Shown here: positions 3,168-63,998 of the stretch, in pieces | How positions within the stretch are numbered: position 1 is the stretch's first letter | How the letters are laid out: every line of letters starts with the position of its first letter | Source of the DNA: Amoebidium appalachense | Taxonomy: Eukaryota; Protista; Ichthyosporea | Assembly: GCA_963693365.1 (NCBI GenBank) | Contig: CAVNZM010000008.1 | Span: 10,672,123-10,736,122, forward strand | Length of the DNA stretch: 64,000 nucleotides | Direction of reading: 5' to 3' | Notes under the pieces: model-generated | The model's database searches: none | Seen by the model: only the letters and a program-made list of their open reading frames with translations | What the model was told of the DNA's origin: nothing | Translations under genes and position numbers: made by a program

Positions 3168-4077
3168 CCCCCCCCCTCCCCCCCCCCCTTCCCCCCCCCC
3201 CCCCCCCCCCCCGCCGCCGCCGCCCTGCGTGCTCCCCTCCCTTATTTCTTATCCCTCCCACAATCTCGCACTTTTTCTCTAAACGGCATCAAACACATCT
3301 CCCCGCACCGAACATCACCCATATTCTTTCCGCGTCTGCAAAACCGCAGTGTCGTTTGTCAGGAGGGTCCGGTGCAGCCAGCATAAGTCTTTTCAAGGGG
3401 GAGGGGGCGATAGAAACGCCAGCACCCGAGTGTGACACGACATTGTTATTTGTGCTCTTGTGACGGGAACTCGAGAGCGTATTTTGCGTATTGATGCCGG
3501 AGGGAGGAAACCACATGGATTGAGAGTGGTGGTTCGGGGTATGTGTTGCTGATAGCATTGAGCGTGAGGGGACTCTTGAACATTTTGTTTCTTTTCTTTT
3601 CTTTTCTTTCCCGTTAAGAACAGAGCACAGAGGTGTAGCGACAGATTTGCACCTAACTGCTCGTAACTATCAGTGGAAACGGCGTTTTCTGACGACAGAG
3701 CGTAAATTGTTCGTGAACGACAGTGGTCTTCAGTTGGGAATTTTCCGTAGAAAAAGGAGTTAAATTTCCGTATTATTGAGGGCGGATGCGTGTTTGCATG
3801 ATGGCACCACCCCCGCAGGGTAGGCGGTCACGGTCAAACTCCTTTCGGGGGGAAAGTTATGCACGAAGAGATAAGGGGGGAATGTGAGGTTGTAGGGAGC
3901 ACGAGCGAGGGAACGGGGGATGCGAAAGCGGAGAATTGGGGGGAGGGAGGGGAGGCAAAGGGTGTGCGGGCGGTTGGACCACGGAGGAACCAACCGGAGA
4001 TATTGCAGAGAAGGGTAGGTTTTTGACATGGGTTGGGGAATAACCCCCCTGCCCCCCCCCCCCCCCACACACACATC

Positions 4078-4470
4078 TTTACTTCCATGCAACCGGGCAT
4101 GGTTGCTCTGTGTCGTGCATCTGTAAGCACATACGCGTTTTTCGCTGCACTGCATTAGTTTGCACACACATCTTCACCGTTCTGCTCACCTTGCTTGCAT
4201 AAGCAACCCTGCTCGTCTTTGATCAAGACGGGTTGACCCACCCAAGTTCAGTTGATGCTGCTGTCTGAGTTGGAGCGTCGTATATACGCGGGCTAAGGGG
4301 TCGAAACTCAGACGCAATTGATGACTTGGGCCCTCCCTGAGGATGGGCTCTGCTTATGACGCATACTGTGCGCATGGCTGATGTTGCACACTTGAATGTT
4401 TGCCTTTGCATGTGTCCTGCACCATGCTTCTCATCGTGTATGTGTACTTCGTACTGTGTTCCGCATTCAA
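4078..4470 (+). repeat. Dispersed structured-RNA repeat, subtype A, copy 1 (core 4198-4358)
   Basis: Near-identical to 5473-5805 and 43750-44130; core runs CATAAGCA...CTCGTCTTTGATCAAGACGGG...GGTCGAAACTCAGAC...CCTGAGGATGGG...TGCTTATG. Confidence 0.9.
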
Positions 4471-5472
4471 ACCCCCCCCCACACACACCACCACCACCAC
4501 CACCCTCACCCCCTTCCTCCACGCACACAAATACGCACAAACACACACGCACACACACGCACACACACACACACACACACGGAGATAGACACACATGCGT
4601 GCAAGGACACACACACACACAACACACGTATCCCACCCTCCCCCCTGTTTCTCGGGCTGTACACGGGAACGGTAACGGAGCTACATGCATTTTCACCCTC
4701 CACATGACACGCACGCGCACACACGCACACACACACGCACACACACACGCACATACACGATGACAAACAATGACACATGCACACGAATGGGCACCTGCTC
4801 ATCTACATCCTGGCACACACACGCACATGCCACAACAGCCCACACCGAACTAAATTCATTTCTTTACCTTTCTCTCATTCTCTTTATTTTTCTCATTTTT
4901 AGGCTTTGCTGCACTTTCTTTGTTTCTTTGTGGCTTCTGATCCTTGTAAACAACCCCCCTACGCACACGCACGCGTGAACACCACCCGCACATCCACCAC
5001 CCTCTACCCCCCCCCCCCCCCCCCCCTCCCTCCCTCCCACCCTCTCTCCCTCTCTCTCTCTCCCTCTCCCTCTCCCTCCCTCCATCCCTCCCTCCCTCTC
5101 TCTCTCTTTCTCTTTCGCTCGCTCGCTCGTTCTCTGTCTCCCTCTCTCTCCCCCCCTCTCTCCCTCTCCCCCTCCCTCCCCCTCTCTCCCCCCTCCCCCT
5201 CCCCTTCCCCCCTCTCTCCCCCCGCTCCCTTTCCCAAACAATTCCCCCGCTGTTCTTCTTTCTCAGCCGGCTAGGTTTTTGGGTTGCCTGGTAAGTTTTG
5301 AAATGGGGCTCTCGTCTCTGATCTGTCCACCACAGGGTTTCTTTCTTTTTTTTTTTTTTTTTTTTTTTTTATATTATAATTCTTCTCCCCCCCCCCCCCC
5401 CCCTTTCCCCCTCCCTCCCTCCCCTCCCTTCACCCTTCGCCCTTCCCCGGCCTACTCCCCCCCCCCCCCCCC

Positions 5473-5805
5473 TTCGCTGCACTGCATTAGTTTGCACACA
5501 CATCTGCACCGTTTTGCTCACCTTGCTTGCATAAGCAACCCTGCTCGTCTTTGATCAAGACGGGTTGACCCGCCCAAGTTCAGTTGATGCTGCTGTCTGA
5601 GTTGGAGCGTCGTATATACGCGGGCTAAGGGGTCGAAACTCAGACTCAATTGATGACTTGGGTCCTCCCTGAGGATGGGCTCTGCTTATGACGCATACTG
5701 TGCACATGGCTGATGTTGCATACTTGATTGTTTGCCTTTGCATGTGTCCTGCACCATGCTTCTCGTCGTGTATGCGTACTTCGTACCGTGTTCCGCATTC
5801 AAACC
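5473..5805 (+). repeat. Dispersed structured-RNA repeat, subtype A, copy 2 (core 5530-5690)
   Basis: Direct alignment by eye to 4140-4470. Confidence 0.9.
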
Positions 5806-5886
5806 CCCCCTCCCCCCCCCCCCCTTCCCCTCCTACCTTCTTTCCCCCCCCCCCCCCCCCCCCCCCTGGCCAAACCCTGTATACAC

Positions 5887-6618
5887 TCTTCTCATCAGCA
5901 GGTCTCTAACCCACTCTGCAGAACGTTTTACGCATTTCTCCCCTTGGAGAACTTGGTCGTTGGTGCGTTTTTGTCTGATATCTAACGCCTTTCCAGGGTC
6001 CCCTGAGACTACTGACACTCTAACATTCCCTCCCCTCTCTTAATCCCCCCCCCCCCCCCCCCCCCCCCTCCCCCCCCCCTCCTCCTTCCCCTCCCATTTT
6101 CCCTGCACACTCAACAGGCCTTAACCAGCTCTGCACATCGTTAGTCACAATCTTCTCTTATATATGAGAGAATGATCGTATTGGTACGATTTGTCTAATA
6201 TCTGACGATTCTGCAGCATCCCTAAGACCCCCCCCCCCCCCCCTCCCTCCCCCCCCCTTTTCTCTCTCTCTCTCTTTTTTTTTTTTTTTTTTTTTTTTGG
6301 CGCCTGTTGTTTTGCTTGTCATTTGTTGTTCTGGTTGATTACCTGTAACCTTCGCTTATTTATGTGTGTGTGTGTGTGTGTGTTGTGCGGGGTTGCACAC
6401 ACCGGTGTCTACTTTTCTTCCTACTTTTTTTCTCTCCACACACTTCATCTGTCCACTTCTGCATACCCCATTTCATAGCTATAGACACACTTCACACATT
6501 GCGTTACGCGCACGCATGCACACACCGCTCTGTTGGCGACAGCTCCCTTGGAACCCATGTGGCATGTTACCCGCCGGCGTAACATAACTCGGACTATCGA
6601 TTTGGCTTTTTTCAAGCC
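5887..6618 (+). repeat. Repeat C, copy 1 (duplicated at 7944-8820), truncated at ...TTCAAGCCC
   Basis: CTTCTCATCAGCAGGTCTCTAACC...GGACTATCG.TTTGGCTTTTTTCAAGCCC occurs twice, differing mainly in microsatellite lengths. Confidence 0.85.
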
Positions 6619-6678
6619 CCTCCCCTCCCCCCTCCCCCTCGTGTTTCCGAATCACTTTTGCCTTCTATCGTACCCCCA

Positions 6679-6864
6679 GTGAAACAGTATCTGAGTTGGG
6701 TTTCGTTAACGAGGGGAATAGGTCGAAACTCGGGTACTGTGGATGACGTGGGCCCCCCCTGAGGATGGGCTCTGCTTATTATGCATACTCTTTATGTATG
6801 GCTTGCATTCTGCATCGTGTTATCCGTTTGTTCTTGTGTACTTCGTACTTTTTGACGCATTCAA

Positions 6865-6866
<2 letters not shown>
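6679..6866 (+). repeat. Structured-RNA repeat, subtype B, 5'-truncated copy
   Basis: Matches the 3' part of 9129-9385 from AGTGAAACAGTATCTGAG onward. Confidence 0.85.
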
Positions 6867-6912
<46 letters not shown>

Positions 6913-7125
6913 ACCACCACCACCACTGTAGTGATACATACACACATCCGCCCGCACACACACACACACACGCACACACGTGCGCGCGCGCTTGCATACA
7001 AACACAAACACATGGCCTTGCACGCATGTGTGGGCACACACACACACATATGCGTGTGGGCGCGTACAGGCACAAGCACGATCACCCGCAGTCACGCACA
7101 TTCACACACAGTCGCACAACACGCG

Positions 7126-7176
<51 letters not shown>

Positions 7177-7635
7177 CACACACACACATGCGCGGGCATA
7201 CACACAAACACAAACACATGCCTTTGCACACATGTGTGTGCGCACACACACACACATATACGTGTGGGCGCGTACAGGCACAAGCACAATCACCGGCAGT
7301 CTCGTACAATCACACACACAGTCGCAAAACACACACACACACACACACAAATACACCCGGCAGAAGACACACATACGGGTACACGGCACATCATGCATTG
7401 CCCAAAACAAGCACGTGCATACACGCATAGCACATATCCCCCCCTCCCTCCCCCCTCCCCCTCCCCCCCACACAAACACACACACACCCATTTTGCTCTT
7501 TCCTCTCCACCCGGGCGTACCCACTAACCATTTTCCTGTCCCCGCAGTTATCCTGTCGACCACAATTGGGACGGTACAAATCCACACTGACCATACGCCA
7601 AACCATAGAAAAGAAGTTGGAGGAAATGTATGGAG

Positions 7636-7675
<40 letters not shown>

Positions 7676-7930
7676 ACTGCCCGTGCCTGCATAAGCAACC
7701 CTGCTCGTCTCTGATCAAGACGGGTGACCTACCCATGTTCAAGTGAAACAGTATCTGAGTTGGGTTTCGTTAACGAGGGGAATAGGTCGAAACTCGGGTA
7801 CTGTGGATGACGTGGGCCCCCCCTAAGGATGGGCTCTGCTTATTATGCATACTCTTTATGTATGGCTTGCATTCTGCATCGTGTTATCCGTTTGTTCTTG
7901 TGTACTTCGTACTTTTTGATGCATTCAACA
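7676..7930 (+). repeat. Structured-RNA repeat, subtype B (core 7690-7843; CTGAGGA mutated to CTAAGGA)
   Basis: Near-identical to 9129-9385. Confidence 0.9.
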
Positions 7931-7943
7931 CCCCCCCCCCCCC

Positions 7944-8359
7944 TTCTCATCAGCAGGTCTCTAACCCACTCTGCAGAACGTTTTACGCATTTCTCCCCTC
8001 GGAGAACTTGGTCGTTGGTGCGTTTTTGTCTGACATCTAACGACTCTGCAGGGTCCCCTGAGACTACTGACACTCTAACATTCCCTCCCCTCTCTTACTT
8101 CCCCCCCCCCCCCCTCCCCCTTTCCCTCCTCCTTCCCCTCCCATTTTCTCTGCACACCCAACAGGTCTTAACCAGATCTGCACATCGTTAGTCACAATCT
8201 TCTCACATATATGAGAGAATGATCGTATTGGTACGATTTGTCTAATATCTGACGATTCTGCAGCATCCCTAAGACCCCCCTCCCCCTCCCCTCCCCCTCC
8301 CCCCCCCCCCCCCCCCCACCTTCTCTCTCTCTCTCTCTCCCTCTCTCCCTCTCTCTCTC

Positions 8360-8448
<89 letters not shown>

Positions 8449-8453
8449 TTCCT

Positions 8454-8488
<35 letters not shown>

Positions 8489-8549
8489 GCGCCTGTTGTT
8501 TTGCTTGTCATTTGTTGTTCTGGTTGATTACCTGTAATCTTCGCTTATT

Positions 8550-8584
<35 letters not shown>

Positions 8585-9385
8585 TGTGCGGGGTTGCACA
8601 TACCGGTGTCTACTTTTCTTCTTACTGTTTTTCTCTCCACACACTTCATCTGTCCACTTCTGCATACCCCCTTTCATAGCTATAGACACACTTCACACAT
8701 TGCGTTACGCGCACGCATGCACACACCGCTCTGTTGGCGACAGCTCCCTTGGAACCCATGCGGCATGTTACCCGCCGGCGTAACATAACTCGGACTATCG
8801 GTTTGGCTTTTTTCAAGCCCAAAGCAATGGGTGATACCATATTTCCGGCTGACGTCCGGGGGCATAGCTTTCCGTTCGAAGACGATAAAGTTCCGCCCTA
8901 GTAAGCGTGTTACTACCCTGCGGCGTGGGTCAAATCTCATATTTTCCCCTCTGATTACGAATTCTGTGGCCTTCGGGACTTAATTCTTTTCAGCTGGTGT
9001 AGTATGTTAGCCAGGGAAGTATCGACTTAGGTATCGACGGGGGAGCTTCCTAGAAGCCCCGTCTCCTGAGTTCCTATCTATATTTTTCTTGCTTCTGCTT
9101 ACTGCTGCAACTTTAACCCCCGGCCTTTCCCACTGCCCTTGCCTGCATAAGCAACCCTGCTCGTCTCTGATCAAGACGGGTGACCTACTCATGTTCAAGT
9201 GAAACAGTATCTGAGTTGGGTTTCGTTAACGAGGGGAATAGGTCGAAACTCGGGTACTGTGGATGACGTGGGCCCCCCCTGAGGATGGGCTCTGCTTATT
9301 ATGCATACTCTTTATGTATGGCTTGCATTCTGCATCGTGTTATCCGTTTGTTCTTGTGTACTTCGTACTTTTTGACGCATTCAAA
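7944..9385 (+). mobile_element. Probable 3' remnant of a retroelement (Penelope-like?): repeat C, a short reading-frame end at 8743-8901, a 3' UTR and a subtype B core at 9146-9299
   Basis: 8743-8901 translates as APLEPMRHVTRRRNITRTIGLAFFKPKAMGDTIFPADVRGHSFPFEDDKVPP*. IGLAFFKPKAMGDTIF loosely resembles the post-thumb IAYxRPKNLGDLL motif of PLE RTs. A hammerhead-like core follows. Confidence 0.35.
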
Positions 9386-10101
9386 CCCCCCCCCCCCCCC
9401 CCCCCCCCTCTCCCCATCCCTCCCTCCCTCCCACCCATGTGTCCTTGTGAAGCTTCATGCACGTACTATTACCCCCCTCCCCCTCCCCCCTCCTCTTGAG
9501 GATGGGCTTTACTTTTGGTGTGGGTGCTGTGTCTCCTTTATTGCACATGGGCATTAATTTGCTCGTTGTGAGTTTGTACTTCATTCTGTCCTCCGGGTTG
9601 CGCTTCAACACGTACACATACACGATGGCTTCTCAGTTCTGCATTACAGTTTGGTTTTGACCCTCTCAATACACTCATACCCCTCTTCCCCCCTCCCCTC
9701 CCGCCCCCACCTCGGGCGCTTCTGCCCGCTCCCCTCACTCTCTCTCCCCTTTCACCTCTCTCACTCGTTCAATTGCAACACTCACATGCTCATGCACCCC
9801 GTTCACACTCGTGCTTACACTTCTTACACTCGCACTCGTGCGCATTCAAAGACACAGGCGCGCGCTTGCACACACCTTCATGCACATGCCGACCACCTGT
9901 TGCCTTATGACCACCCCCCCACACAAGGTATGTGTTCGTTCACTGCAAATAGATGGCTTTTGGTGATGGGTGCTAAGCATCGTCACGGGAAGGGGGACCC
10001 CCCCCCCCCCTCCCCCCCCCCCCCCCACTACACACACAACGGTTTCTAGGCTCACCTTATGAAATAGTTGCTTTTCCGTTTCTGACCCGTTGTGCCCACA
10101 G

Positions 10102-14170: not shown

Positions 14171-19937
<5,767 letters not shown>

Positions 19938-22398: not shown

Positions 22399-23131
22399 TT
22401 ACTCAGTCACCACAAATGCAACACTGTCCTTCCCAGCACCGATCGACAGGACCTTCCCCCCCAACCCATCCACATGTGTGGGCGTGGCCTGGGTGCCCGA
22501 TGCGCCAGTCCCCAGTTTCGACGCATCCCCCCAACCGTAAACGGATGCCTCATTGGTCAGCGCAAAGCACGTGTTCGCCCCAACGGCCAATCCCTTAATG
22601 CCTTTTCCGGCAAGGGCCGTGACTTCCACCCAATGGTTGCCTTCCTCTATTTCCGTGTCGGTCTCGTTGCCAGTTCCGAGAACGCCACCGGCACCCTGTT
22701 TATGTGTTTTGTGTTAGAGGAGGTATGCAGTTGGAGTGGGTTTGTTGTTGTGAGGAAAATGTGAAGAGGTGCACCTTTTTGTATTTGTGTGTATGAACAT
22801 GTATACGCATGTGTGCATGAGCATGGGCATACGACTGCGTGTACGTGTGCCCATGTGTGAGGGTGTGAATATGAGTGCACGGGGTGACGGATAGGGGCGC
22901 CGGGAGGGGAGGGGGGGGGGGGGGGGGTTTAAATGTGTCACAGCGAATGTAGAACAGAATCACGACGGACAACACATTTCTGCATGTACAGCACACAAGA
23001 GTATGCATAATTAGGGGATGGGGGGGGGGGGGGGGGGGGGGGGGGTTGAATGCATCATAAAGCACGAAGTACACAAAAACAACGGACAACACGATGCAAA
23101 GTGCAAACCACAGCTGTAGGGGGGAGAGGTC

Positions 23132-23170
<39 letters not shown>

Positions 23171-23358
23171 AAAGGCACCATGCATGTATGATTCAACGCG
23201 CTTCTGGCATTACTTGCATGCATGCTGATGGTGGCATGTTGCCTGTTCTCCCCCCCCCTCCCTCCCTCCCCCCTTCTCTTCCATCCTCCCACTCTCATTT
23301 CTATTTTCTTGCATAATTCTTTTCTTGGGGGCAGGGGGCAGGGGGCAGGGGGCAGGAA

Positions 23359-23397
<39 letters not shown>

Positions 23398-24935
23398 AGC
23401 TGATACATACCTTGCCACGTGCCCACACGTGCCCCTCCGCATCCACCGCCACCACAAATTCCTGGCCAGCCGCCACCCCCACCACCTTCTTCCCCTCCAA
23501 CAGCGTCACCTGCACGGGCACATGTTGATCCTCCTCATCTTCCACCCCAACCTCCCCCCCAGCACCAAACGCAAACATAACCCCATCTCCCATAACGACA
23601 AAAGTGCTCGCGGGCCCGCAGAAAACATCAACGGCTTTCGCGTCGTTTCCTTTAACCCCACGGCGCCGTGGAATGCGCGCTTCGCTTGGGGTCAGGAGGA
23701 TATCATCGTGCTGGCGGGTGGTGCGGGGGCCTAAACGGCCCAGCCTGCCGTGCTCGCCGCACCCGAAAGTGAGCACCTTTCCATGTTGGGTTAACAGGAC
23801 CGCATGCTGGGAGCCACTGACAACCTTGATGCATGGGTCACGTTGGTTGGTGTAGATCTCGGTGGGTGTTGTGTGCTCACTGCCAATCAACTCATCCTTG
23901 CCGTTCTGGAAAAGACCAGAAGCGTCAATATGCGGGAAAAGCTGAAAATAAGTCGTGGTATGCTAACCAACTGCAACACAGGGGAACATGTGATTGTGTT
24001 ACCCGGGAGAAGGGGGGAGGGGGGAGGGGGAAGGGGGAGGTATGTGTTAGAATGCGTAAGAGAGCACCAGTCACACATTCATGACGGACAACACAAGGAT
24101 GAGTGCAAAGCACACATAAAGGGTATGCGGGAAGGGGAAAGGAAGGAGAGGGGGGAGGGGGGGGGGGGGGGGGGGGGAGGGGGAAGGGGATGGGATGCAT
24201 CGATTGAAAAGTGAAAAGCATGGAAGCAATAAAAGAACACCTGGTGCAGATCGAAGCAATAAAGGAACACCTGGTGCAGAGCCATCACCAGGGGCGGTTC
24301 CCATGCCTGAACAAAAAGAACCATTTCCCGGCAACGGCAGCGGGGGGGGGGGGGGGGGGAAGGGGGGAGGGGAAGGGGGAGGGGGAGGAGGGGGGAAGGG
24401 GGCGGGGGGGGGGGGGGGGGGGGGGTAATGAAACGTATACTCTACAGAGACTAACACCGTTTCCCTCGGCATTTTTTCTCACCTACCCAAGCCCCCCTCC
24501 CCGTCCCCCACACCACGTTCATGCACAAGCAAGCACACAAAACGGTACACACACACACACACACACACACCTTGAACGCGCCCAGCAGGTAGGCAGATCC
24601 GTCTGCAGCCAGCACCAGGGTGTGACTGCCCCCACAGGCGACTTGCACTCCCTCCTTGCCCGATAGATTAAGTGCTCCAATTGCGCCGCTGCCCCACGTG
24701 TGCACCTGATAAGAACACGGTGAGTGTTAACTTTTCACAGGTAAGTATGTGTGTCTTTGTGTTTGTGTGTGTGTGTGTCTCTGTGTTTGTGTTTGTGTTT
24801 CTGTGTGTCTGTGCGCGCGCGTGTGCGCGCGCGCGTGTGTGTGTGGAAACTGCAGATGACGACTGATTTGTGCAGAAGTCAGGCCAGCAGAGGGAAGAGC
24901 AGGTGGGAAAGAAACGAGGTTGGAGTGGTGGTGGT

Positions 24936-28321: not shown

Positions 28322-29114
28322 GTTGATGTTTTGTACCAAGAGAACTCTATTATGAGCGTTAGCGTTGACTCACTTGAAGATGCTACCTTCTCAAGCACAA
28401 AATAATTTGAAGAAATACGTGACACAGCTATATTGTGTATGCTTATTCTCTACCTGTTACAACAGCTTTTCACTTCAGGTAAACCTACAAAGAAAGACGT
28501 TTCAAGCTTCACCGTGACCGCGCTTTTTTTTTGTACCGGCGACGCGACCGGACTTTTCCTGTCCAATTAAATTTTTGGACATCAAATCCTGTTGAATCCA
28601 CGTGATTGGTTGTATAAATCCTGGGCGGGAGCCGCATGCAGGCACTGTGATGTGCAAATGTACTGTTCATGAAATTGAACATTGAAAATCAAAAGACACC
28701 AGCAACATAGAAAAATATTACATAGCATACCTCTAATATATTTTTTAATATGTTATCTATACTTGGTGGTGCTCTTAGTTAGCATCAGGTGTCCAGACAG
28801 AAAGGCATTGTTTTTACCGCGCTCCCGGTGTGATACCTGTGTAATTACCCCAGCCTCTTAGTAGTTACGCAATTGTTTGGTCACCACCGGCAAATGGCTC
28901 CTGATAAAAGCACTTTTGACGTATGTACAATGTAGACCACTCGGACTCAGCCAAAACGTTACGCTGCCGTAGGCTACATGGCCGGCCGGTGTGCGCCGCA
29001 ATCCACCGGCGCCCGCCAATATGGCATATACCTTGTGGTGACGACCTCGGCATTTTTTTATATGGCTATGCCAGAAGCAAAAATCATTCCTGAAAAAAAT
29101 AACTGGGGTTTTAC

Positions 29115-32060
29115 ATGTACACAATAAACCCAGCTCAGACACCTTATGATTCCATGGCCGGAAAATCTGGCAGCCGTTCGCCTCACTACGTCACGCAGGC
29201 AATGACGTCATCTTTGCCGCGATCAGATGGAGTATGTCCAAAGTCACACTTTGCGGTTCCCTCAAATATCCCATGCCCACAACACCGACTGGGGAGTGGC
29301 CTTTTGGCCATCAACCATGTCAAAACGGGGGTTTACGCTGTTTACTCGAGGCAAAGAGAACCAGTCTCAGGTATGGGGGGGGGGGGTTTTGCTCGGAATA
29401 TCCCCTCAGCGGTATATCATGATCACGTACATAGATGTCGGGTGGTGACTATATTCTCTCTCCCTCCTAACCTCTCTAGGTCATCTGACCACTCTCCTAT
29501 CCTTTTCCTACCTAAGATCTCCCTTGATCTGCTCCCCCCTCCCCCTCCCACCTTTCGCCTCCGTCTATCCCAGCTTAAGTCACAGTGGGGTAGAGTTGAT
29601 GTATGTGTATGCTATGCTACGAAACACCCTATATATATGCGCCTATTAGAATCTGCACAAGCCAGGCCAGATTCACATCTCGTACTAGATACATGCACTA
29701 ACTTTATTGTTGATGATTTGATAGATCTCGGTGATTATGCTGGCGGTGGTAGGAAGGAATATCCCGATGCTCTCTTGTTACCAAACACCACTCCCGCTAG
29801 ACTAGGTGAACCCCTGTCTCAAAAGGAAAGCTTGCGCCGGCTTGCTAGTATGAATCGATTTGGCCCCCCTGCTCGTATTATTGGTGATACCACTGGAGAC
29901 CCCCTCATAGACTCTGATAAGTATTTCTCGGAACTGTTTAAAGATAGGACCCCCGCTCAGAAACCTATTGTGTGGCCTGTAGACCCATCTATCCCCATAG
30001 AATCGATCCTCCCCTTTTTCAGTCCCGATGCCATATGGTCTGTGATATCTAGTTATAGCTCTAGTAAGTCTTGTGGACCTGATGGACTCCCTGCTGGGTT
30101 TCTTAAAATCCTTGTTCCCTCCTACCCACAAAAGGAAAGTGATCGTGCTATTAAACCTGATCTTACTATCATGTTAAGCTCTCTCTTTTCTTGGTGTGTT
30201 AAATGTGGACATGTCCCGTCATCTTGGTTAGATACCTTAGTGATCCCCATAGTTAAGAAGGACTCTGAGGGCCCCATATCATCCTTTCGCCCCATTACAC
30301 TAACCCAGGTTGTTCGTAGATTCTTTGAAGCTTGCTTACTTAGGTTATTTGCACATCACCCTAGGTTTCAATCTATTCTTCACATACACCCATGCCAATC
30401 CGCTTTTCGTAAAAACAATTCATGTTATGTTCAAATAATGGCACTGCACGATTCTATGCAAGTTGGTGCACAATATGTTGGCTTTATTGATTGGAAAACT
30501 GCTTACGATTCTGTCTCCCCTGGTCTCCTATGGGAAAAGCTTGCTGCACGGGGTGTACCACACTGCATTGGTGTTCTGTTAGAAGCACTCTTGTCTCAAA
30601 CCTATGGTAGAGCTGTGGTTAATGGGCATCTTTCATATGGTTTTGCTCGTACTAGAGGTCTCTTGCAGGGTTCATTGCTTAGCCCCTTTTTGTTTAACCT
30701 ATTTATAGATGATTTGGCTGTCAAGATTTACGCCGAAAACGATGACCCTATTAATAACTTTCCGCCTGCACTTCTCTATGCTGATGATCTGTCCCTCCTT
30801 GCCCGTACCCCTAGACGCCTGCAAAGATTATTCGATGTAGTGTCAGAGTGGTGCAAGGCAAACCTTATGATCCTTAACATAGACAAATGTGGTGTTCTTG
30901 TACCTGATATAGCTAACAATTTACACACATTTACATTATCATCTAAACCTGTACCTATAGTTCCAGAATACAAATATCTTGGTGTTCCGGTTGATTCTGT
31001 TGGTGTTATGTTTCCCCATATGGTCGAAAAGAGGGTAGAGTTGGCTCGTAAGCGGTTAGCTTTCTTCTCGGCTAATATTTTTAAAGACACCCCCCTCCAT
31101 CCTTCTATTAGACTTACATTTATTCGCACTTTTGTCTTCCCGGCATGTGAATATGGTTTACCCCTTCTCGCCGCTTGGATCAAGAAAGAGAGAACTAGAG
31201 CGCTTAAACCCTTGGCAAATTTCCTTGAAGCAGAAGTTGCCTCCTTTCTATCTAACAACTGTTGTAAACCTGGGCCTGTAACGCTCTCGATATATGGTCT
31301 GGTCCCAATAGCTGCTAGAGTATCCTATCTCGCGCTGAAATTCAATAAGCACATAAGCCGCTTAAAGAAGTATTTGCCCTCCCACCCTCTCTTCTCTATC
31401 CGACCTGTCCCCTCCTCACCTCTCCCCTCTTTCCTCCCCTCTCTCTCCCCTTCTCCCCTGGGCACAAATACAAATAAACCCCGCAATAGTGTGTGTGTGA
31501 CTTTGGACTGCCACCTACTTATTAAACATGTACACAATCACAAGATAATCACGCAATATAACAAATGGAAAAAGATACCACACGACACTAGACCCGATGA
31601 AAGCATACACCTTGAAAAACTAAGCCTTATGTCTCGTTTTATATATACTGACCGCCTCAACCATATTGCCAAATATGGCACTCGCAAGTGTATAACACCT
31701 AAATACATATTACCTTCCTGTAGAACTGGTCTTTCTCTAGCTGATGGTATTATTGATCAATTACCACGCTTTTACTGTACACGTGCTATACAGTGGAGAT
31801 CTAATAAGTATAAGGTGGCATCATTTGCATGCCCAAACAACACACACACACACCAGTTTAACCGGTCATGTATCGCCAAATGTAGTTTGATAGACCACAT
31901 AATACCGCAACACACACACGTCACATTCACAACAGACACCCAGAAAGATAGCCTACCTGTAAATTACAACATCCTTGATTTTATACTAAACACGCGTAAC
32001 TACGACCTGTTTATTAGATGTATTGATTGGCTTGAGAAACACATCACTACAAAATTATAG
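29115..32060 (+). CDS. Non-LTR reverse transcriptase ORF (981 aa as open frame; LINE-derived part starts ~29455; internal ATG at 29637)
   Basis: RT motifs KSCGPDGLP, FRPITL, QSAFR, FIDWKTAYDSV, GLLQGSLLSPFLFNLFIDDL, LLYADD, YKYLGV; C-terminal Cys/His cluster CPNNTHTHQFNRSCIAKC. Confidence 0.93.
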   Translation: MYTINPAQTPYDSMAGKSGSRSPHYVTQAMTSSLPRSDGVCPKSHFAVPSNIPCPQHRLGSGLLAINHVKTGVYAVYSRQREPVSGMGGGGFARNIPSAVYHDHVHRCRVVTIFSLPPNLSRSSDHSPILFLPKISLDLLPPPPPTFRLRLSQLKSQWGRVDVCVCYATKHPIYMRLLESAQARPDSHLVLDTCTNFIVDDLIDLGDYAGGGRKEYPDALLLPNTTPARLGEPLSQKESLRRLASMNRFGPPARIIGDTTGDPLIDSDKYFSELFKDRTPAQKPIVWPVDPSIPIESILPFFSPDAIWSVISSYSSSKSCGPDGLPAGFLKILVPSYPQKESDRAIKPDLTIMLSSLFSWCVKCGHVPSSWLDTLVIPIVKKDSEGPISSFRPITLTQVVRRFFEACLLRLFAHHPRFQSILHIHPCQSAFRKNNSCYVQIMALHDSMQVGAQYVGFIDWKTAYDSVSPGLLWEKLAARGVPHCIGVLLEALLSQTYGRAVVNGHLSYGFARTRGLLQGSLLSPFLFNLFIDDLAVKIYAENDDPINNFPPALLYADDLSLLARTPRRLQRLFDVVSEWCKANLMILNIDKCGVLVPDIANNLHTFTLSSKPVPIVPEYKYLGVPVDSVGVMFPHMVEKRVELARKRLAFFSANIFKDTPLHPSIRLTFIRTFVFPACEYGLPLLAAWIKKERTRALKPLANFLEAEVASFLSNNCCKPGPVTLSIYGLVPIAARVSYLALKFNKHISRLKKYLPSHPLFSIRPVPSSPLPSFLPSLSPSPLGTNTNKPRNSVCVTLDCHLLIKHVHNHKIITQYNKWKKIPHDTRPDESIHLEKLSLMSRFIYTDRLNHIAKYGTRKCITPKYILPSCRTGLSLADGIIDQLPRFYCTRAIQWRSNKYKVASFACPNNTHTHQFNRSCIAKCSLIDHIIPQHTHVTFTTDTQKDSLPVNYNILDFILNTRNYDLFIRCIDWLEKHITTKL
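29328..29454 (+). repeat. Left arm of 127/128-bp inverted repeat (MITE/foldback-like TIR)
   Basis: Reverse complement of 32275-32402 (2 mismatches near the outer end, G-run 12 vs 13). Confidence 0.92.
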
Positions 32061-32274: not shown

Positions 32275-32402
32275 ATATAGTCACCACCCGACATCTATGT
32301 ACGTGATCATGATATACCGCTGAGGGGATATTCCGAGCAAAACCCCCCCCCCCCCATACCTGAGACTGGTTCTCTTTGCCTCGAGTAAACACCCTAAACC
32401 CC
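32275..32402 (-). repeat. Right arm of 127/128-bp inverted repeat
   Basis: Reverse complement of 29328-29454. Confidence 0.92.
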
Positions 32403-42592: not shown

Positions 42593-46668
<4,076 letters not shown>

Positions 46669-54685: not shown

Positions 54686-55005
54686 ACACGTGTGGTGTCT
54701 AAACAGCCTATAGGCATGCTCCGTGTGCAGGCACCAATTTCTACCCTCTTCTGGTTGGTGCCAAGAGGCAGCGCCCTACACGTGTGGTGTCTAAACAGCC
54801 TATAGGCATGCTCCGTGTGCAGGCACCAATTTCTACCCTCTTCTGGTTGGTGCCAAGAGGCAGCGCCCTACACGTGTGGTGTCTAAACAGCCTATAGGCA
54901 TGCTCCGTGTGCAGGCACCAATTTGTTGTGCCTTCCTTTTTTGGTTAGATCTATACCCGGCCAATGGTTAGCAGCCACGGGTTTGTTTTCATCAAGCTTA
55001 GACGT
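54686..55005 (+). repeat. Left inverted-repeat arm: 92-bp unit x ~2.6 plus an 83-bp tail
   Basis: Units start at 54686, 54778 and 54870; 54706-55005 is the reverse complement of 59734-60036. Confidence 0.92.
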
Positions 55006-56439: not shown

Positions 56440-56842
56440 TTTGATTGGTCGACTAAGTGGCATTCTCTTTTGATTTGTATTTGAATTGGTCGGTCTTGAT
56501 TTATTTGTTTCTTTTCTCTTTTAGTTTGTATTTGAATATACTCGGTCCAAGTTGATTTGTTCTTTGTAATCTGACTAGACTATCATGTACGTACGTACTC
56601 TTTTTCTATACAATCACTTGTGTTCATATCAAAGGATTCTGTGTACGTGGACCACGGAAACATACACCATTTTTTGCAGTGCTTCATGCTATAAAATAAC
56701 CATGAGAGACACAAACAAATACACTAAGTGTGTACACGTCTACCCATAGGCCCAAGTGTTGACATGTCTGCCCACAGTTCCCTAAGGCTTAAAGCACACA
56801 TCTGCCTGTATGCCATAAACTTTACTTTCACCACAAGACACC

Positions 56843-57592
56843 CACCTAAGTACACTCTGCACCACCCTAAGTACACTGTGGTGCACAGCCCCACCCTAAG
56901 TACACGTCTGCACCACCCTAAGTACACTGTGGTGCACAGCCCCACCCTAAGTACACGTCTGCACCACCCTAAGTACACTGTGGTGCACAGCCCCACCCTA
57001 AGTACACGTCTGCACCACCCTAAGTACACTCTGCACAGCCCCACCCTAAGTACACGTCTGCACCACCCTAAGTACACGTCTGCACCACCCTAAGTACACG
57101 TCTGCACCACCCTAAGTACACGTCTGCACCACCCTAAGTACACTCTGCACAGCCCCACCCTAAGTACACGTCTGCACCACCCTAAGTACACTCTGCACAG
57201 CCCCACCCTAAGTACACTCTGCACCACCCTAAGTACACGTCTGCACCACCCTAAGTACACCTCTGCACAGCCCCACCCTAAGTACACTCTGCACCACCCT
57301 AAGTACACTCTGCACCACCCTAAGTACCTCTACACCATCCTAAGTACACGTCTGCACAGCCCCACCCTTTAAGTACACTCTGCACCACCCTAAGTACACT
57401 CTGCACCACCCTAAGTACCTCTACACCATCCTAAGTACACGTCTGCACAGCCCCACCCTTTAAGTACACGTCTGCACAGCCCCACCCTTTAAGTACACGT
57501 CTGCACCATCCTAAGTACACGTCTGCACAGCCCCACCCTTTAAGTACACGTCTGCACAGCCCCACCCTAAGTACACTCAATGTTAAGTACAC
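56843..57592. repeat. Tandem array of ~32 units (21-29 bp) with core (CCC)TAAGTACAC
   Basis: Counted by eye; linkers drawn from a few variants (TCTGCACCA, GTCTGCACCA, TCTGCACAGCCCCA, TGTGGTGCACAGCCCCA). Confidence 0.95.
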
Positions 57593-59733: not shown

Positions 59734-60036
59734 ACGTCTAAGCTTGATGAAAACAAACCCGTGGCTGCTAACCATTGGCCGGGTATAGATCTAACCAAAA
59801 AAGGAAGGCACAACAAATTAGTGCCCTGGACACGGAGCATGCCTATAGGCTGTTTAGACACCACACGTGTAGAGCACTGCCTCTTGGCACCAACCAGAAG
59901 AGGGTAGAAATCAGTGCCCTGCACACAGAGCATGCCTATAGGCTGTTTAGACACCACACGTGTAGGGCACTGCCTCTTGGCACCAACCAGAAGAGGGTAG
60001 AAATCAGTGCCCTGCACACGGGGCATGCCTATAGGC
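59734..60036 (-). repeat. Right inverted-repeat arm: 83-bp tail plus 93-bp unit x ~2.4
   Basis: GCCTATAGGC at 59841, 59934 and 60027 (period 93); reverse complement of 54706-55005. Confidence 0.92.
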
Positions 60037-60575
60037 AGTGATGGGGTGAGTAGGATGAGTAGCTTGAGTACCTTACTCATCTGGTCTCCCCCCGGGTGTT
60101 CCAATTTCCTTTTGGATTGAGATTTAGGTATACCCGTAGCCCACAGTAGATGAGTACGTACTCATCCTACTCATCCTACTCACTATATGACAATTGCATA
60201 TTTTTATACCCAAAAAGGAAACCTTTACCATATTTGGGTGAGTAACATCTAGTGGGGGAAACTTGTCTGTGTTACTCAGAATCAGTACCTTGAGTAAGAT
60301 AATTATTGTTACTCAGTGCAACAAGTTTCAGGTGACGTGTATCTGCTTATACTTATATATATATATATCCTGAGTGTAGGGCTGGCTCCCTAATGGACAC
60401 TCCAAACCCACATATTTGTAACAATATTATCGACCATAATCCCAACGCACACCAGACATGTGCTCCGATGACTCCCTGGCTGTGGGCCTCCTTATATTCA
60501 CATGCTGCGCCATCCAGGGCACAGTTGCACCTTCACCGGCAGTCGCACACACACACGCACTGCGTGATACCTGCA

Positions 60576-62475: not shown

Positions 62476-63054
62476 TCACACGAGTTGGTTGCCCGGTTGA
62501 TCTTGTTGTTTGTGTTTATGCACCTCCTTTCGATGTCGCCACAGCCCACTACGCCATGAGAAGGCCTTTGAGCACCCTTCCTCAGCGCATATGTAGGAGC
62601 GCTGACCTGTATGGATGCGGTTATGAAATTTAAGCGCGTTGGAGTTCTTGAGAATCGCCCCGCATCCAGTGACACCACATACCACCTGTTGTCTTGAATC
62701 GTGCACCTTTAAGTGCCTAAGAAGCGCACCCCTGTATGAAAAGCGAGCGCCACACTCATCGTGGTTGCATGCATATGGGCGCTCACCCGTGTGCCTTCGT
62801 GTGTGTCGTAAAAGCCGTCCAGATTGTGGAGACCTGTAGTTGCACCCTTCGTAACTGCACTCGTATTTCTTTATTCCGGTGTGTATGGTCATATGTGCAT
62901 CCAGACCAACTTGTTGCGTACACCTTACCGTACAACCAGGCCATGTACATGGATATGGTTTTTCACCGGTGTGAAATTTTGCATGACGTTGTAGGTTCTG
63001 CTTTGTTGCAAAAGTTTTATTACATGTTGTACATCTATGATCTGTCATATTCAT
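62476..63054 (-). CDS. Intronless C2H2 zinc-finger protein (6 fingers, 192 aa)
   Basis: CxxC/CxxxxC...HxxxH fingers with canonical linkers HTGEKPY and HTGERPY. Confidence 0.93.
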   Translation of the reverse strand: MNMTDHRCTTCNKTFATKQNLQRHAKFHTGEKPYPCTWPGCTVRCTQQVGLDAHMTIHTGIKKYECSYEGCNYRSPQSGRLLRHTRRHTGERPYACNHDECGARFSYRGALLRHLKVHDSRQQVVCGVTGCGAILKNSNALKFHNRIHTGQRSYICAEEGCSKAFSWRSGLWRHRKEVHKHKQQDQPGNQLV

Positions 63055-63281: not shown

Positions 63282-63998
63282 CTATGCAAGTGAACCGAGA
63301 AGGTCTTGCTCCATAGCCTGACAAACATCTTTCGACAAACCAATCTGCTCAAACGACAAAACATAACAGTACCGTGCCGCTGAATTGACCTTCGTTCCCA
63401 CTGGTTTCCCCAAAATGGCACGAAGCGCACTACCAAACAGCTTTTGGCTTGGTTTCTGACTGCGCCCTGTCGCGTTCCGCTCGTGCCACAAACGAAAGTA
63501 GTCGAACAGGTCGCTGTTGGTGAAGCGTTGGCCATCGACTGGTCGGGGCCACTCCTCGCATCCGTTGTCGCCCGTCACAAGGTCGCGCAGAAACTGCAGT
63601 TCATCTGGCCGCCCGAGATCTGTCAACCGTGAACGAAGCTCGGTTGTTGGGGGGGTTGGCATCCGTTGGGGGACATCCACTTCAGCCATCAGTTCGTCCA
63701 AAATCGCCTGGAGAACAGATGGATTGGAGTGTCGTTCCTTGAATTCGGCGAAGTATGCAAACTGCCCCTTTCTATCTGCTGAAGACTCAAAACAGGCCCA
63801 TCGTCGGTCTCCCTCCTCTAGGTTTAGCGGGTGCGACTCGTTGCTGAGAATCACATAGCGCTCACAACTCTCCACGGTAATGATGTCACAGCCCTTCTTT
63901 TCCATGAGGCCCGTGGTTTCCGTAACACGGGCCTTCATTTGGTTGATGATGTCCACATTACCATGCCAAAACACCTCGTCACACACAATAAGCAGCCG
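63282..63998 (-). CDS. C-terminal part of an SF3 primase-helicase (DUF5906 / NrS-1 / D5-like); 5' end beyond the window
   Basis: Walker B RLLIVCDE, K..VTE....EKKG, motif C VILSNE, arginine finger GDRRW, C-terminal winged-helix-like segment (SDLFDYFRLW...SQKLFGSALR). Confidence 0.85.
   Translation of the reverse strand, partial: RLLIVCDEVFWHGNVDIINQMKARVTETTGLMEKKGCDIITVESCERYVILSNESHPLNLEEGDRRWACFESSADRKGQFAYFAEFKERHSNPSVLQAILDELMAEVDVPQRMPTPPTTELRSRLTDLGRPDELQFLRDLVTGDNGCEEWPRPVDGQRFTNSDLFDYFRLWHERNATGRSQKPSQKLFGSALRAILGKPVGTKVNSAARYCYVLSFEQIGLSKDVCQAMEQDLLGSLA

Follow-up and report, generated by a model that had tools for sequence, protein, structure and literature searches.

The closest described relatives of the RNA considered here are the type-SGC hammerhead ribozymes (HRIMA-1 and the SGC variants), a type defined by its 5'-S-G-C block order together with an I-II helix (Eckert et al. 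2023, PMC10085705). According to the sections of that report covered here, these ribozymes cleave at 0.007-0.19 per minute, and compensatory mutants indicate that all four of their helices are necessary. The same sections state that insertions between A9 and G10.1 do not exceed 1-2 nt in any known hammerhead, and block C is assumed there to be uninterruptible.

The Penelope-like elements provide a second point of comparison. In the portions of Craig et al. (2021, PMC8557442) covered here, Naiad elements are described as having no canonical hammerheads, with features flagged as 'HHR_core/half_core' and half-cores lying 35-50 nt apart. Chlamys elements, found in algae and slime molds, are described in these portions as 5'-truncated and targeted to (C)n and (CA)n, and they include non-autonomous members such as MRC1 (PMC8557442).

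Here we describe a repeat found in a 64,000-nt stretch of the genome of Amoebidium appalachense (hereafter the window, with positions counted from its first letter). Amoebidium is an ichthyosporean. We consider it reasonably probable that this dispersed, high-copy, non-coding repeat specifies an RNA that would fold as a double-pseudoknot hammerhead of SGC order, with a core that is interrupted between A9 and G10.1, where two extra helices span the gap, that it likely self-cleaves at GUU^G, and that it is likely copied by a Penelope-like reverse transcriptase (RT) of the Naiad/Chlamys clade.

Results

An initial annotation of the window had called five full cores of ~160 nt together with fragments. 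All of these are present, with closing stems that start one base after the positions originally given: 4199, 5531 and 43872 in subtype A, and 7691 and 9147 in subtype B. The cores are 154-159 nt in length and lie in genomic DNA. Fragments were located at 6678-6866, 15609-15484(-), 23111-23044(-), 23008-22927(-), 24129-24046(-), ~18750-18618(-), ~9495 and 26693(-), and we detected a decayed third subtype (44867-44982, +; E 3.5e-7), which is 5'-truncated, adjoins (CA)n, and has AAAA in place of GAAA as well as CUGAGAA. A structure descriptor combining the cleavage site, GAAA and CUGAnGA with their stems identified five loci in the window (the 4199, 5531, 6678, 9147 and 43872 copies) compared with 0 in each of 40 shuffles; the 7691 copy was missed owing to its CUAAGGA. 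Only three of the five full cores are intact, as the 7691 core carries G5A and the 43872 core has a C.A mismatch in stem II. The 9147 core has CUCAUGU (U.G) instead of CCCAUGU.

The full-length subtype A element (4078-4471, +) spans 394 nt and consists of a 5' leader, the ribozyme core and a 3' tail ending in CATTCAAA before a C run. A second full-length copy (43751-44128, +), the one with the C.A mismatch in stem II, has the identical 5' start base in different flanks, and is bordered by an exact 14-nt target duplication, CCCCCCTGGCCCGC (43737-43750 and 44129-44142), that starts with six C. In the remaining subtype A copy (5473-5803, +) the leader is 5'-truncated and the core (5531-5689) is intact. 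Among the subtype B copies, that at 9122-9385 (+) has an intact core (9147-9299) with cleavage predicted at 9217/9218, that at 7675-7930 (+) bears the G5A core change (CUAAGGA, 7823-7829) and is predicted to be inactive, and that at 6678-6866 (+) is 5'-truncated, without the 5' strand of P1, P2 or the stem II strand; a further 5'-truncated B fragment (15484-15609, -) lies between two C runs. Many element copies are shortened at the 5' end and keep a fixed 3' end. The tail (4358-4471, +) is common, more loosely, to several related repeat families in the window, and all of its matches (10/10) end in a C run. Members of the element make up about 3.6% of the window.

Variant contig pieces matching the element in one public run (X1) numbered 8,923 on subtype A and 5,084 on subtype B, totals that give no copy number. 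The thousands of such pieces in public runs show that the repeat family is large. Two metatranscriptome runs (X17 and X15) yielded 0 and only 3 matching pieces, respectively, and provide no evidence on habitat. Additional GCGCC and ACGCC subtypes hinted at by loose-end consensi were set aside as mixtures, with an agreement of only 0.57-0.63.

Repeats at 18750-18618(-), 24293(-), 9495(+) and 26693(-) carry decayed CUGAUGA or CUGAGGA-UGG and similar tails, with different sequence after the core; these related families form a superfamily of C-run-targeting elements. We also observed that a spacer of ~0.8 kb is duplicated (5888-6619 and 7943-8820) ahead of B copies, with CTGATGA on the minus strand at 5898 and 7953. 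A 143-nt stretch of the spacer contains 5 differing sites, and the B copies behind it are identical over 188 nt. The B copies at 7675 and 9122 flank the duplicated spacer, an arrangement that fits either a partial tandem or a segmental duplication; spacer and B copies together are possibly a longer mobile unit or a pseudo-LTR arrangement.

In the first half of the core, reading 5' to 3', closing stem P1 is followed by hairpin P2, a stem II strand, the I-II helix, stem III with the GUU site, and stem I; the second half contains a palindromic linker, the stem II partner, GAAA, stem III, the I-II helix partner, the stem I partner, CUGAGGA-U and P1. In the 4199 copy the 5' strand of P1 (4199-4205, +) pairs with the 3' strand (4351-4357, +) with a pair probability of 0.89-1.0, and an inner extension of P1 (CCC 4207-4209 with GGG 4345-4347, +) has a pair probability of about 0.3. 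Hairpin P2 (4212-4232, +), which has a palindromic UGAUCA loop, lies directly 5' of the displaced stem II strand GACCC (4235-4239, +; G10.1 = 4235), whose pseudoknot partner is GGGUC at 4298-4302; the subtype B equivalent is GACCUA/UAGGUC. One variable base separates the stem II strand from the upstream strand of the 7-bp I-II helix (4241-4247, +). Block S (4263-4271, +) is made up of the stem III strand GUCUGAGU, which pairs with 4306-4313, and H17 (U4271), and cleavage is predicted between 4271 and 4272 (GUU^G). The stem I strand GGAG (4272-4275, +) is the pseudoknot partner of CUCC at 4333-4336 (GGG/CCC in B), and the linker that follows (4276-4290, +) contains a 10-nt palindrome, which is CGUAUAUACG in subtype A and UCGUUAACGA in subtype B (9223-9232). 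Block G (GGGUC-GAAA-CUCAGAC; 4298-4313, +; G12 = 4303) precedes a truncated block C (CUCC-CUGAGGA-U; 4333-4344, +; C3 = 4337, G8 = 4342, A9 = 4343) that has no stem II strand after it.

The stem II strand (GACCY) thus sits about 100 nt upstream of CUGAGGA, and the closing stem and hairpin tie it back. The hammerhead core residues C3-A9 (CUGAnGA), G12-A14, A15.1-U16.1 and an H17 other than G are complete in four of the five full cores, with U at H17. Stems I, II and III, with G10.1-C11.1, comprise 3-4, 5-6 and 8-13 bp, respectively; stem I is thus short, and stem II is available only via the upstream strand.

Every helix that the initial annotation listed does pair, in 200 of 201 cells of a five-copy alignment, compared with 27-49% when partners are slid out of register by 1-3 columns. 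Of the pairings proposed to covary between subtypes A and B, only three helices show double-sided changes (stem II, the I-II helix, with one such change in its 7 bp, and stem III), and P1 and the CUCGUCU/AGACGGG hairpin are invariant; subtype B does have GGG/CCC in stem I, but this call depends on how an indel is aligned. Three double-sided pairs were reached by 160 of 500 shuffles, and pair-type shuffles were not significant. Covariation within the window derives from two lineages, and two subtypes alone give weak covariation statistics.

Fold energies distinguish the displaced stem II, at -9.0 to -11.0 kcal/mol, from a contiguous alternative with a G.G mismatch, at -4.2 to -7.2 kcal/mol. Contiguous pairing directly after the core ends after 2 bp at the G.G, whereas the upstream strand pairs over 5-6 bp, and the I-II helix has its partner only in the displaced form (-9.9/-6.7 versus -1.0/-3.1). 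Minimum-energy folds, which cannot show pseudoknots, lie moderately below those of shuffles (z -1.6 to -2.9). In addition, U4234/U4233 could pair with and block G12/A13. A viroid-like rod fold was rejected, as the circular fold is not rod-like (z -0.6, +0.3).

The hammerhead-like core went unrecognized by Rfam, which gave 0 gathering matches in the window; the 20 matches at E<=10 within 4000-9500 included no ribozyme, none lay on a core, and they represent microsatellite-driven noise. The core has neither the circular block order of hammerhead types I, II and III nor a match to their Rfam models. Like type SGC, it has the S-G-C order, two pseudoknots and the I-II helix, and, as in HRIMA-1, a single nucleotide separates the I-II helix from stem II (as judged from the parts of PMC10085705 covered). 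Block C, on the other hand, is unbroken in all 85 unique SGC rows covered (52 + 33, counted by eye) and broken in Amoebidium. SGC motifs are also no longer than 104 nt and come from metatranscriptomes rather than the genomes of known organisms, unlike the 154-159 nt genomic Amoebidium core. Relative to type SGC as depicted there, the stem II strand has moved 5', and the molecule is closed at the free ends of SGC and opened instead within P1. The core would work like SGC, yet we do not class it as a member because block C, a defining feature of the type, is interrupted. The permuted order that the initial annotation offered as a candidate novel architecture is already known as type SGC (PMC10085705). 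What we did not find in print, in the parts of the literature covered, is the break at A9/G10.1 bridged by two extra helices, and the presence of such a core in eukaryotic genomic DNA.

Three near-identical rows among the 85 from Eckert et al. share the 7-bp I-II helix (ACUUGGG/CCCAAGU), CUGAGGAU and GACC/GGUC with subtype A. This match (4241-4344) is of a single lineage and was noticed post hoc, and it may reflect chance or common origin.

The pseudoknot (PK) hammerhead (PDB 8YDC, PMC11300833, covered in part) resembles the Amoebidium core in having an added helix (IV there), a pseudoknot at helix II and the G12/G8 chemistry, but its A9 runs directly into G10.1. Non-LTR retrozymes and the minimal hammerheads of Penelope elements, as presented in the covered parts of PMC4209133 and bioRxiv 10.64898/2026.07.22.740005, are of type I and arranged in tandem, whereas the Amoebidium copies are dispersed, are associated with target duplications and have a non-circular order. 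A non-LTR retrozyme was rejected on the grounds that the copies are dispersed, that no tail-to-start joint occurs among the joints listed, and that the fold is not rod-like.

None of the loci returned by pattern scans (72 metagenome, 4 viral and 49 GTDB) combined a stem I of >=3 with a stem III of >=5. The helix-core word had 6 viral matches, none with an upstream GAAA, and a core profile search gave nothing below E 0.08 in 227 loci. The 96 viral GAAA...CUGAnGAUGACC loci comprised 85 ordinary type II hammerheads, 0 SGC and 11 that were neither; several contigs carry 2-4 of the type II loci each. Neither this layout nor a self-cleaving ribozyme of Amoebidium turned up in the openly accessible literature covered, and a word search of the main text of PMC11244446 showed that 'Penelope' is absent from it.

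By eye, the split layout can be recognized near the 3' end of at least seven of 54 Naiad consensi, from four animal lineages, in the part of the Craig et al. 2021 material (PMC8557442) covered. These are Naiad_Bfor (ctenophore), three Acropora entries, two Octopus entries (Obim/Ovul) and one further entry, with names assigned by file order. In this comparison by eye, their helix sequences all differ from those of Amoebidium yet pair with few exceptions: a single Acropora entry of the three is mismatched once in stem I and once in stem II, stem I of Naiad_Bfor is 2 bp, and the octopus entries are without a clear closing stem. In three Naiad lineages the closing stem begins directly or two bases after CUGAUGA, and G10.1 is preceded by a hairpin. 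The Acropora closing stem, of 8 bp, directly follows CUGAUGA, and the hairpin plus a U come before G10.1. The base after the core in these three lineages (coral, ctenophore and the third) is A, C or U, and because it cannot pair with C11.1, G10.1 must come from upstream. As read from these consensi, the A9/G10.1 break is real in all three. The junction words UG-CUC...GGG-U-G are common to Amoebidium and to the coral and ctenophore Naiads, and one spider entry (before Naiad_Lpol) contains an intact type CSG, with the same cyclic order opened elsewhere. The initial annotation's idea of a retroelement-borne hammerhead with pseudoknots and an expanded junction is supported, and the pairings it listed are borne out by these independent Naiad sequences.

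As in Naiads, the Amoebidium element combines the split layout with 5' truncation and microsatellite targets. Unlike the Naiads described in these portions, which are animal, ORF-bearing and (TA)n-targeting, it is non-coding, ichthyosporean and (C)n/(CA)n-targeting. It resembles Chlamys in ending in AA plus a C run, as two (C)n-targeting consensi do; the split core was not found in two complete Chlamys 3' ends or in the other Chlamys passages of PMC8557442 examined. No Penelope RT, GIY-YIG or autonomous partner was found among the 130 window ORFs scanned. The carrier is most likely a non-autonomous element of the Naiad/Chlamys clade. A related fragment (~22970, -) shares a 13-nt tail word with the Acropora Naiads of this material, in which the word lies immediately 5' of the ribozyme; this may be chance.

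Variation in public runs bears on individual pairs. In subtype B, 9186 T>C accounted for 3.7, 3.3 and 12.7% of depth and the paired 9240 A>G for 3.1, 3.7 and 6.3%. The two variants, which would convert U-A to C-G in stem II, match in depth in all three runs with cover and are unphased. A further change, 9252 G>A, converts G.U to A-U, and 9272 G>C breaks a terminal pair; this table of subtype B variants is not exhaustive, as the A/B difference at 9167 is absent from it. In the subtype A core, four of five variant sites fall outside the 107 constrained of 159 positions (P = 0.04), and the remaining site carries the B-type change in stem I. The density of variants in core and flank did not differ significantly (5/159 versus 16/232, P = 0.12; Fisher test excluding flank sites 4182 and 4389, where the window copy is the outlier). 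Changes at C3/U4 reached 1.3-2.3% in run X1 and 0.2% or less in X2. Contigs from a putative RNA run span the predicted cleavage site intact; DNA may be present in this run, and ends cannot be read from contigs.

Discussion

We propose that a long arm, composed of the I-II helix and stem III, would hold the cleavage strand and, in its loop, GAAA. The loop would bend back and pair with the strands that flank the base of the arm, forming stem II (with GACCC) and stem I (with CUCC). P1 and P2 would place A9 beside G10.1, at the point where natural (Penelope) hammerheads carry a bulged nucleotide, and G12 (4303) would then act as general base and the 2'-OH of G8 (4342) as general acid at the scissile bond, as in solved hammerheads. 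Cleavage could serve to release units from read-through or tandem transcripts, a role that the sources covered propose for other hammerheads of Penelope elements. Target-primed reverse transcription would insert the element at (C)n/(CA)n. Since the two products would stay joined by more than 20 bp, a cleaved RNA could be ligated again, or copying could proceed past the nick, and this may be why full-length copies keep the site. Given that the site is kept in those copies and is spanned by the putative-RNA contigs, any cleavage would be partial, reversible or bypassed.

A more far-reaching form of this proposal, toward which we lean only slightly, is that the core represents a seventh, non-circular permutation: an active ribozyme whose strand is cut at A9/G10.1 and rejoined by a conserved two-helix arm, a possible on/off switch, and which would have been a hidden ribozyme of the Naiad/Chlamys clade since before animals. 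If correct, the published rule of an uninterruptible CUGAnGA block, as worded in the covered sections of PMC10085705, would be overturned, and non-circularly permuted ribozymes, so far environmental apart from one weak bacterial case, would be present in eukaryotic genomes at high copy. The layout is common to the repeat of a single-celled animal relative and to animal Naiads reported, in the portions covered, to be without canonical hammerheads, and it would explain the apparent absence of hammerheads from a very successful retroelement clade. The layout may be undercounted because Rfam misses it, and many more such ribozymes may be uncounted. Tolerance of a helix-sized insertion at A9/G10.1 would also offer a new attachment point for engineered switches.

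Retention of the cleavage site in full-length copies, and its being spanned by contigs of the RNA run, would also suit a conserved non-catalytic scaffold, derived from a hammerhead, that would serve the reverse transcriptase for recognition or packaging and do no cutting. Minimal Penelope hammerheads are described in the covered sources as poor cleavers in vitro, and the A9/G10.1 break violates the published block rule (PMC10085705, sections covered). A mere scaffold, however, would need none of the core residues, and from Amoebidium to the ctenophore, coral and octopus consensi covered, CUGAnGA, GAAA, UH and G10.1-C11.1 persist while every helix sequence changes. We regard this explanation as fairly unlikely.

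We also consider unlikely a switched or dimeric ribozyme, in which the monomer would be locked off by the P1 extension on GGG and by U.G12. The switched variant would be active only if the GG after CUGAGGAU supplied G10.1, in a nicked or contiguous SGC stem II. UGG does follow the core in subtypes A and B, in three related fragments and in the octopus Naiads covered, and this GG can pair with UC, but the contiguous stem II has a G.G at its third pair and comes without the I-II helix, and the coral, ctenophore and third-lineage Naiads of the same material have no G after the core. In the dimeric variant two copies would dock loop to base via their palindromes. Subtypes A and B each keep a different 10-nt palindrome, with a self-duplex energy of -15.2 versus -1.3/-1.4 kcal/mol for the hairpin, and the cofold lies about 11-12 kcal/mol below two monomers, so that the linker is a possible dimerization site. 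The linker between stems I and II in the coral, ctenophore and third-lineage Naiads covered is short and non-palindromic. A dimer, which the initial annotation had raised, is thus possible in that palindromic loops allow it, and it is not needed.

It is very unlikely that the repeat is a SINE-like sequence mobilized by a LINE, with a captured viroid-like SGC ribozyme and a convergent likeness to Naiads: the target duplications are clean, the 5' start is fixed, a LINE-type RT is present in the window and three of the 85 Eckert rows (one lineage, post hoc) share the I-II helix, CUGAGGAU and GACC/GGUC with subtype A, but the window RT ends in (CA)n and poly-A with no shared tail, block C is whole in 85/85 of the Eckert rows covered, and the UG-CUC...GGG-U-G junction words are common to the coral and ctenophore Naiads covered. 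A SINE derived from tRNA, 7SL or 5S RNA was rejected, as Rfam gave no match that would indicate a head derived from a Pol III RNA. The preferred reading remains that of an interrupted SGC-order hammerhead on a Penelope-like element.

Other features of the window

The window RT (29103-32060, +) is a 985-codon LINE-type frame in which no endonuclease domain was detected, and a named Amoebidium parasiticum protein matches it at 98% identity across 75% of the region searched. The window RT was rejected as the partner of the element because its tail is different and AP endonuclease domains occur in its relatives. A segment of 127 nt within the RT frame (29328-29454) recurs inverted at 32275-32402, beyond the (CA)n and poly-A tail.

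Host exons encode RCC1 repeats (23213-23962, -) and a Sybindin-like protein (45543-45908, +). RCC1-like segments of the same strand lie to either side of the repeat fragments at 22927-23111, which are likely in an intron. At the end of the window, a DUF5906 frame (63285-63998, -), which we take to be primase/helicase-like, runs off the edge and adjoins an intronless C2H2 zinc-finger ORF (62479-63054, -); this region is possibly an endogenous viral or Polinton-like insert. Finally, the window contains a degenerate tandem array of ~90-nt units at 56839-57578 and an inverted pair of ~300-nt repeats at 54686-55005 and 59734-60039.
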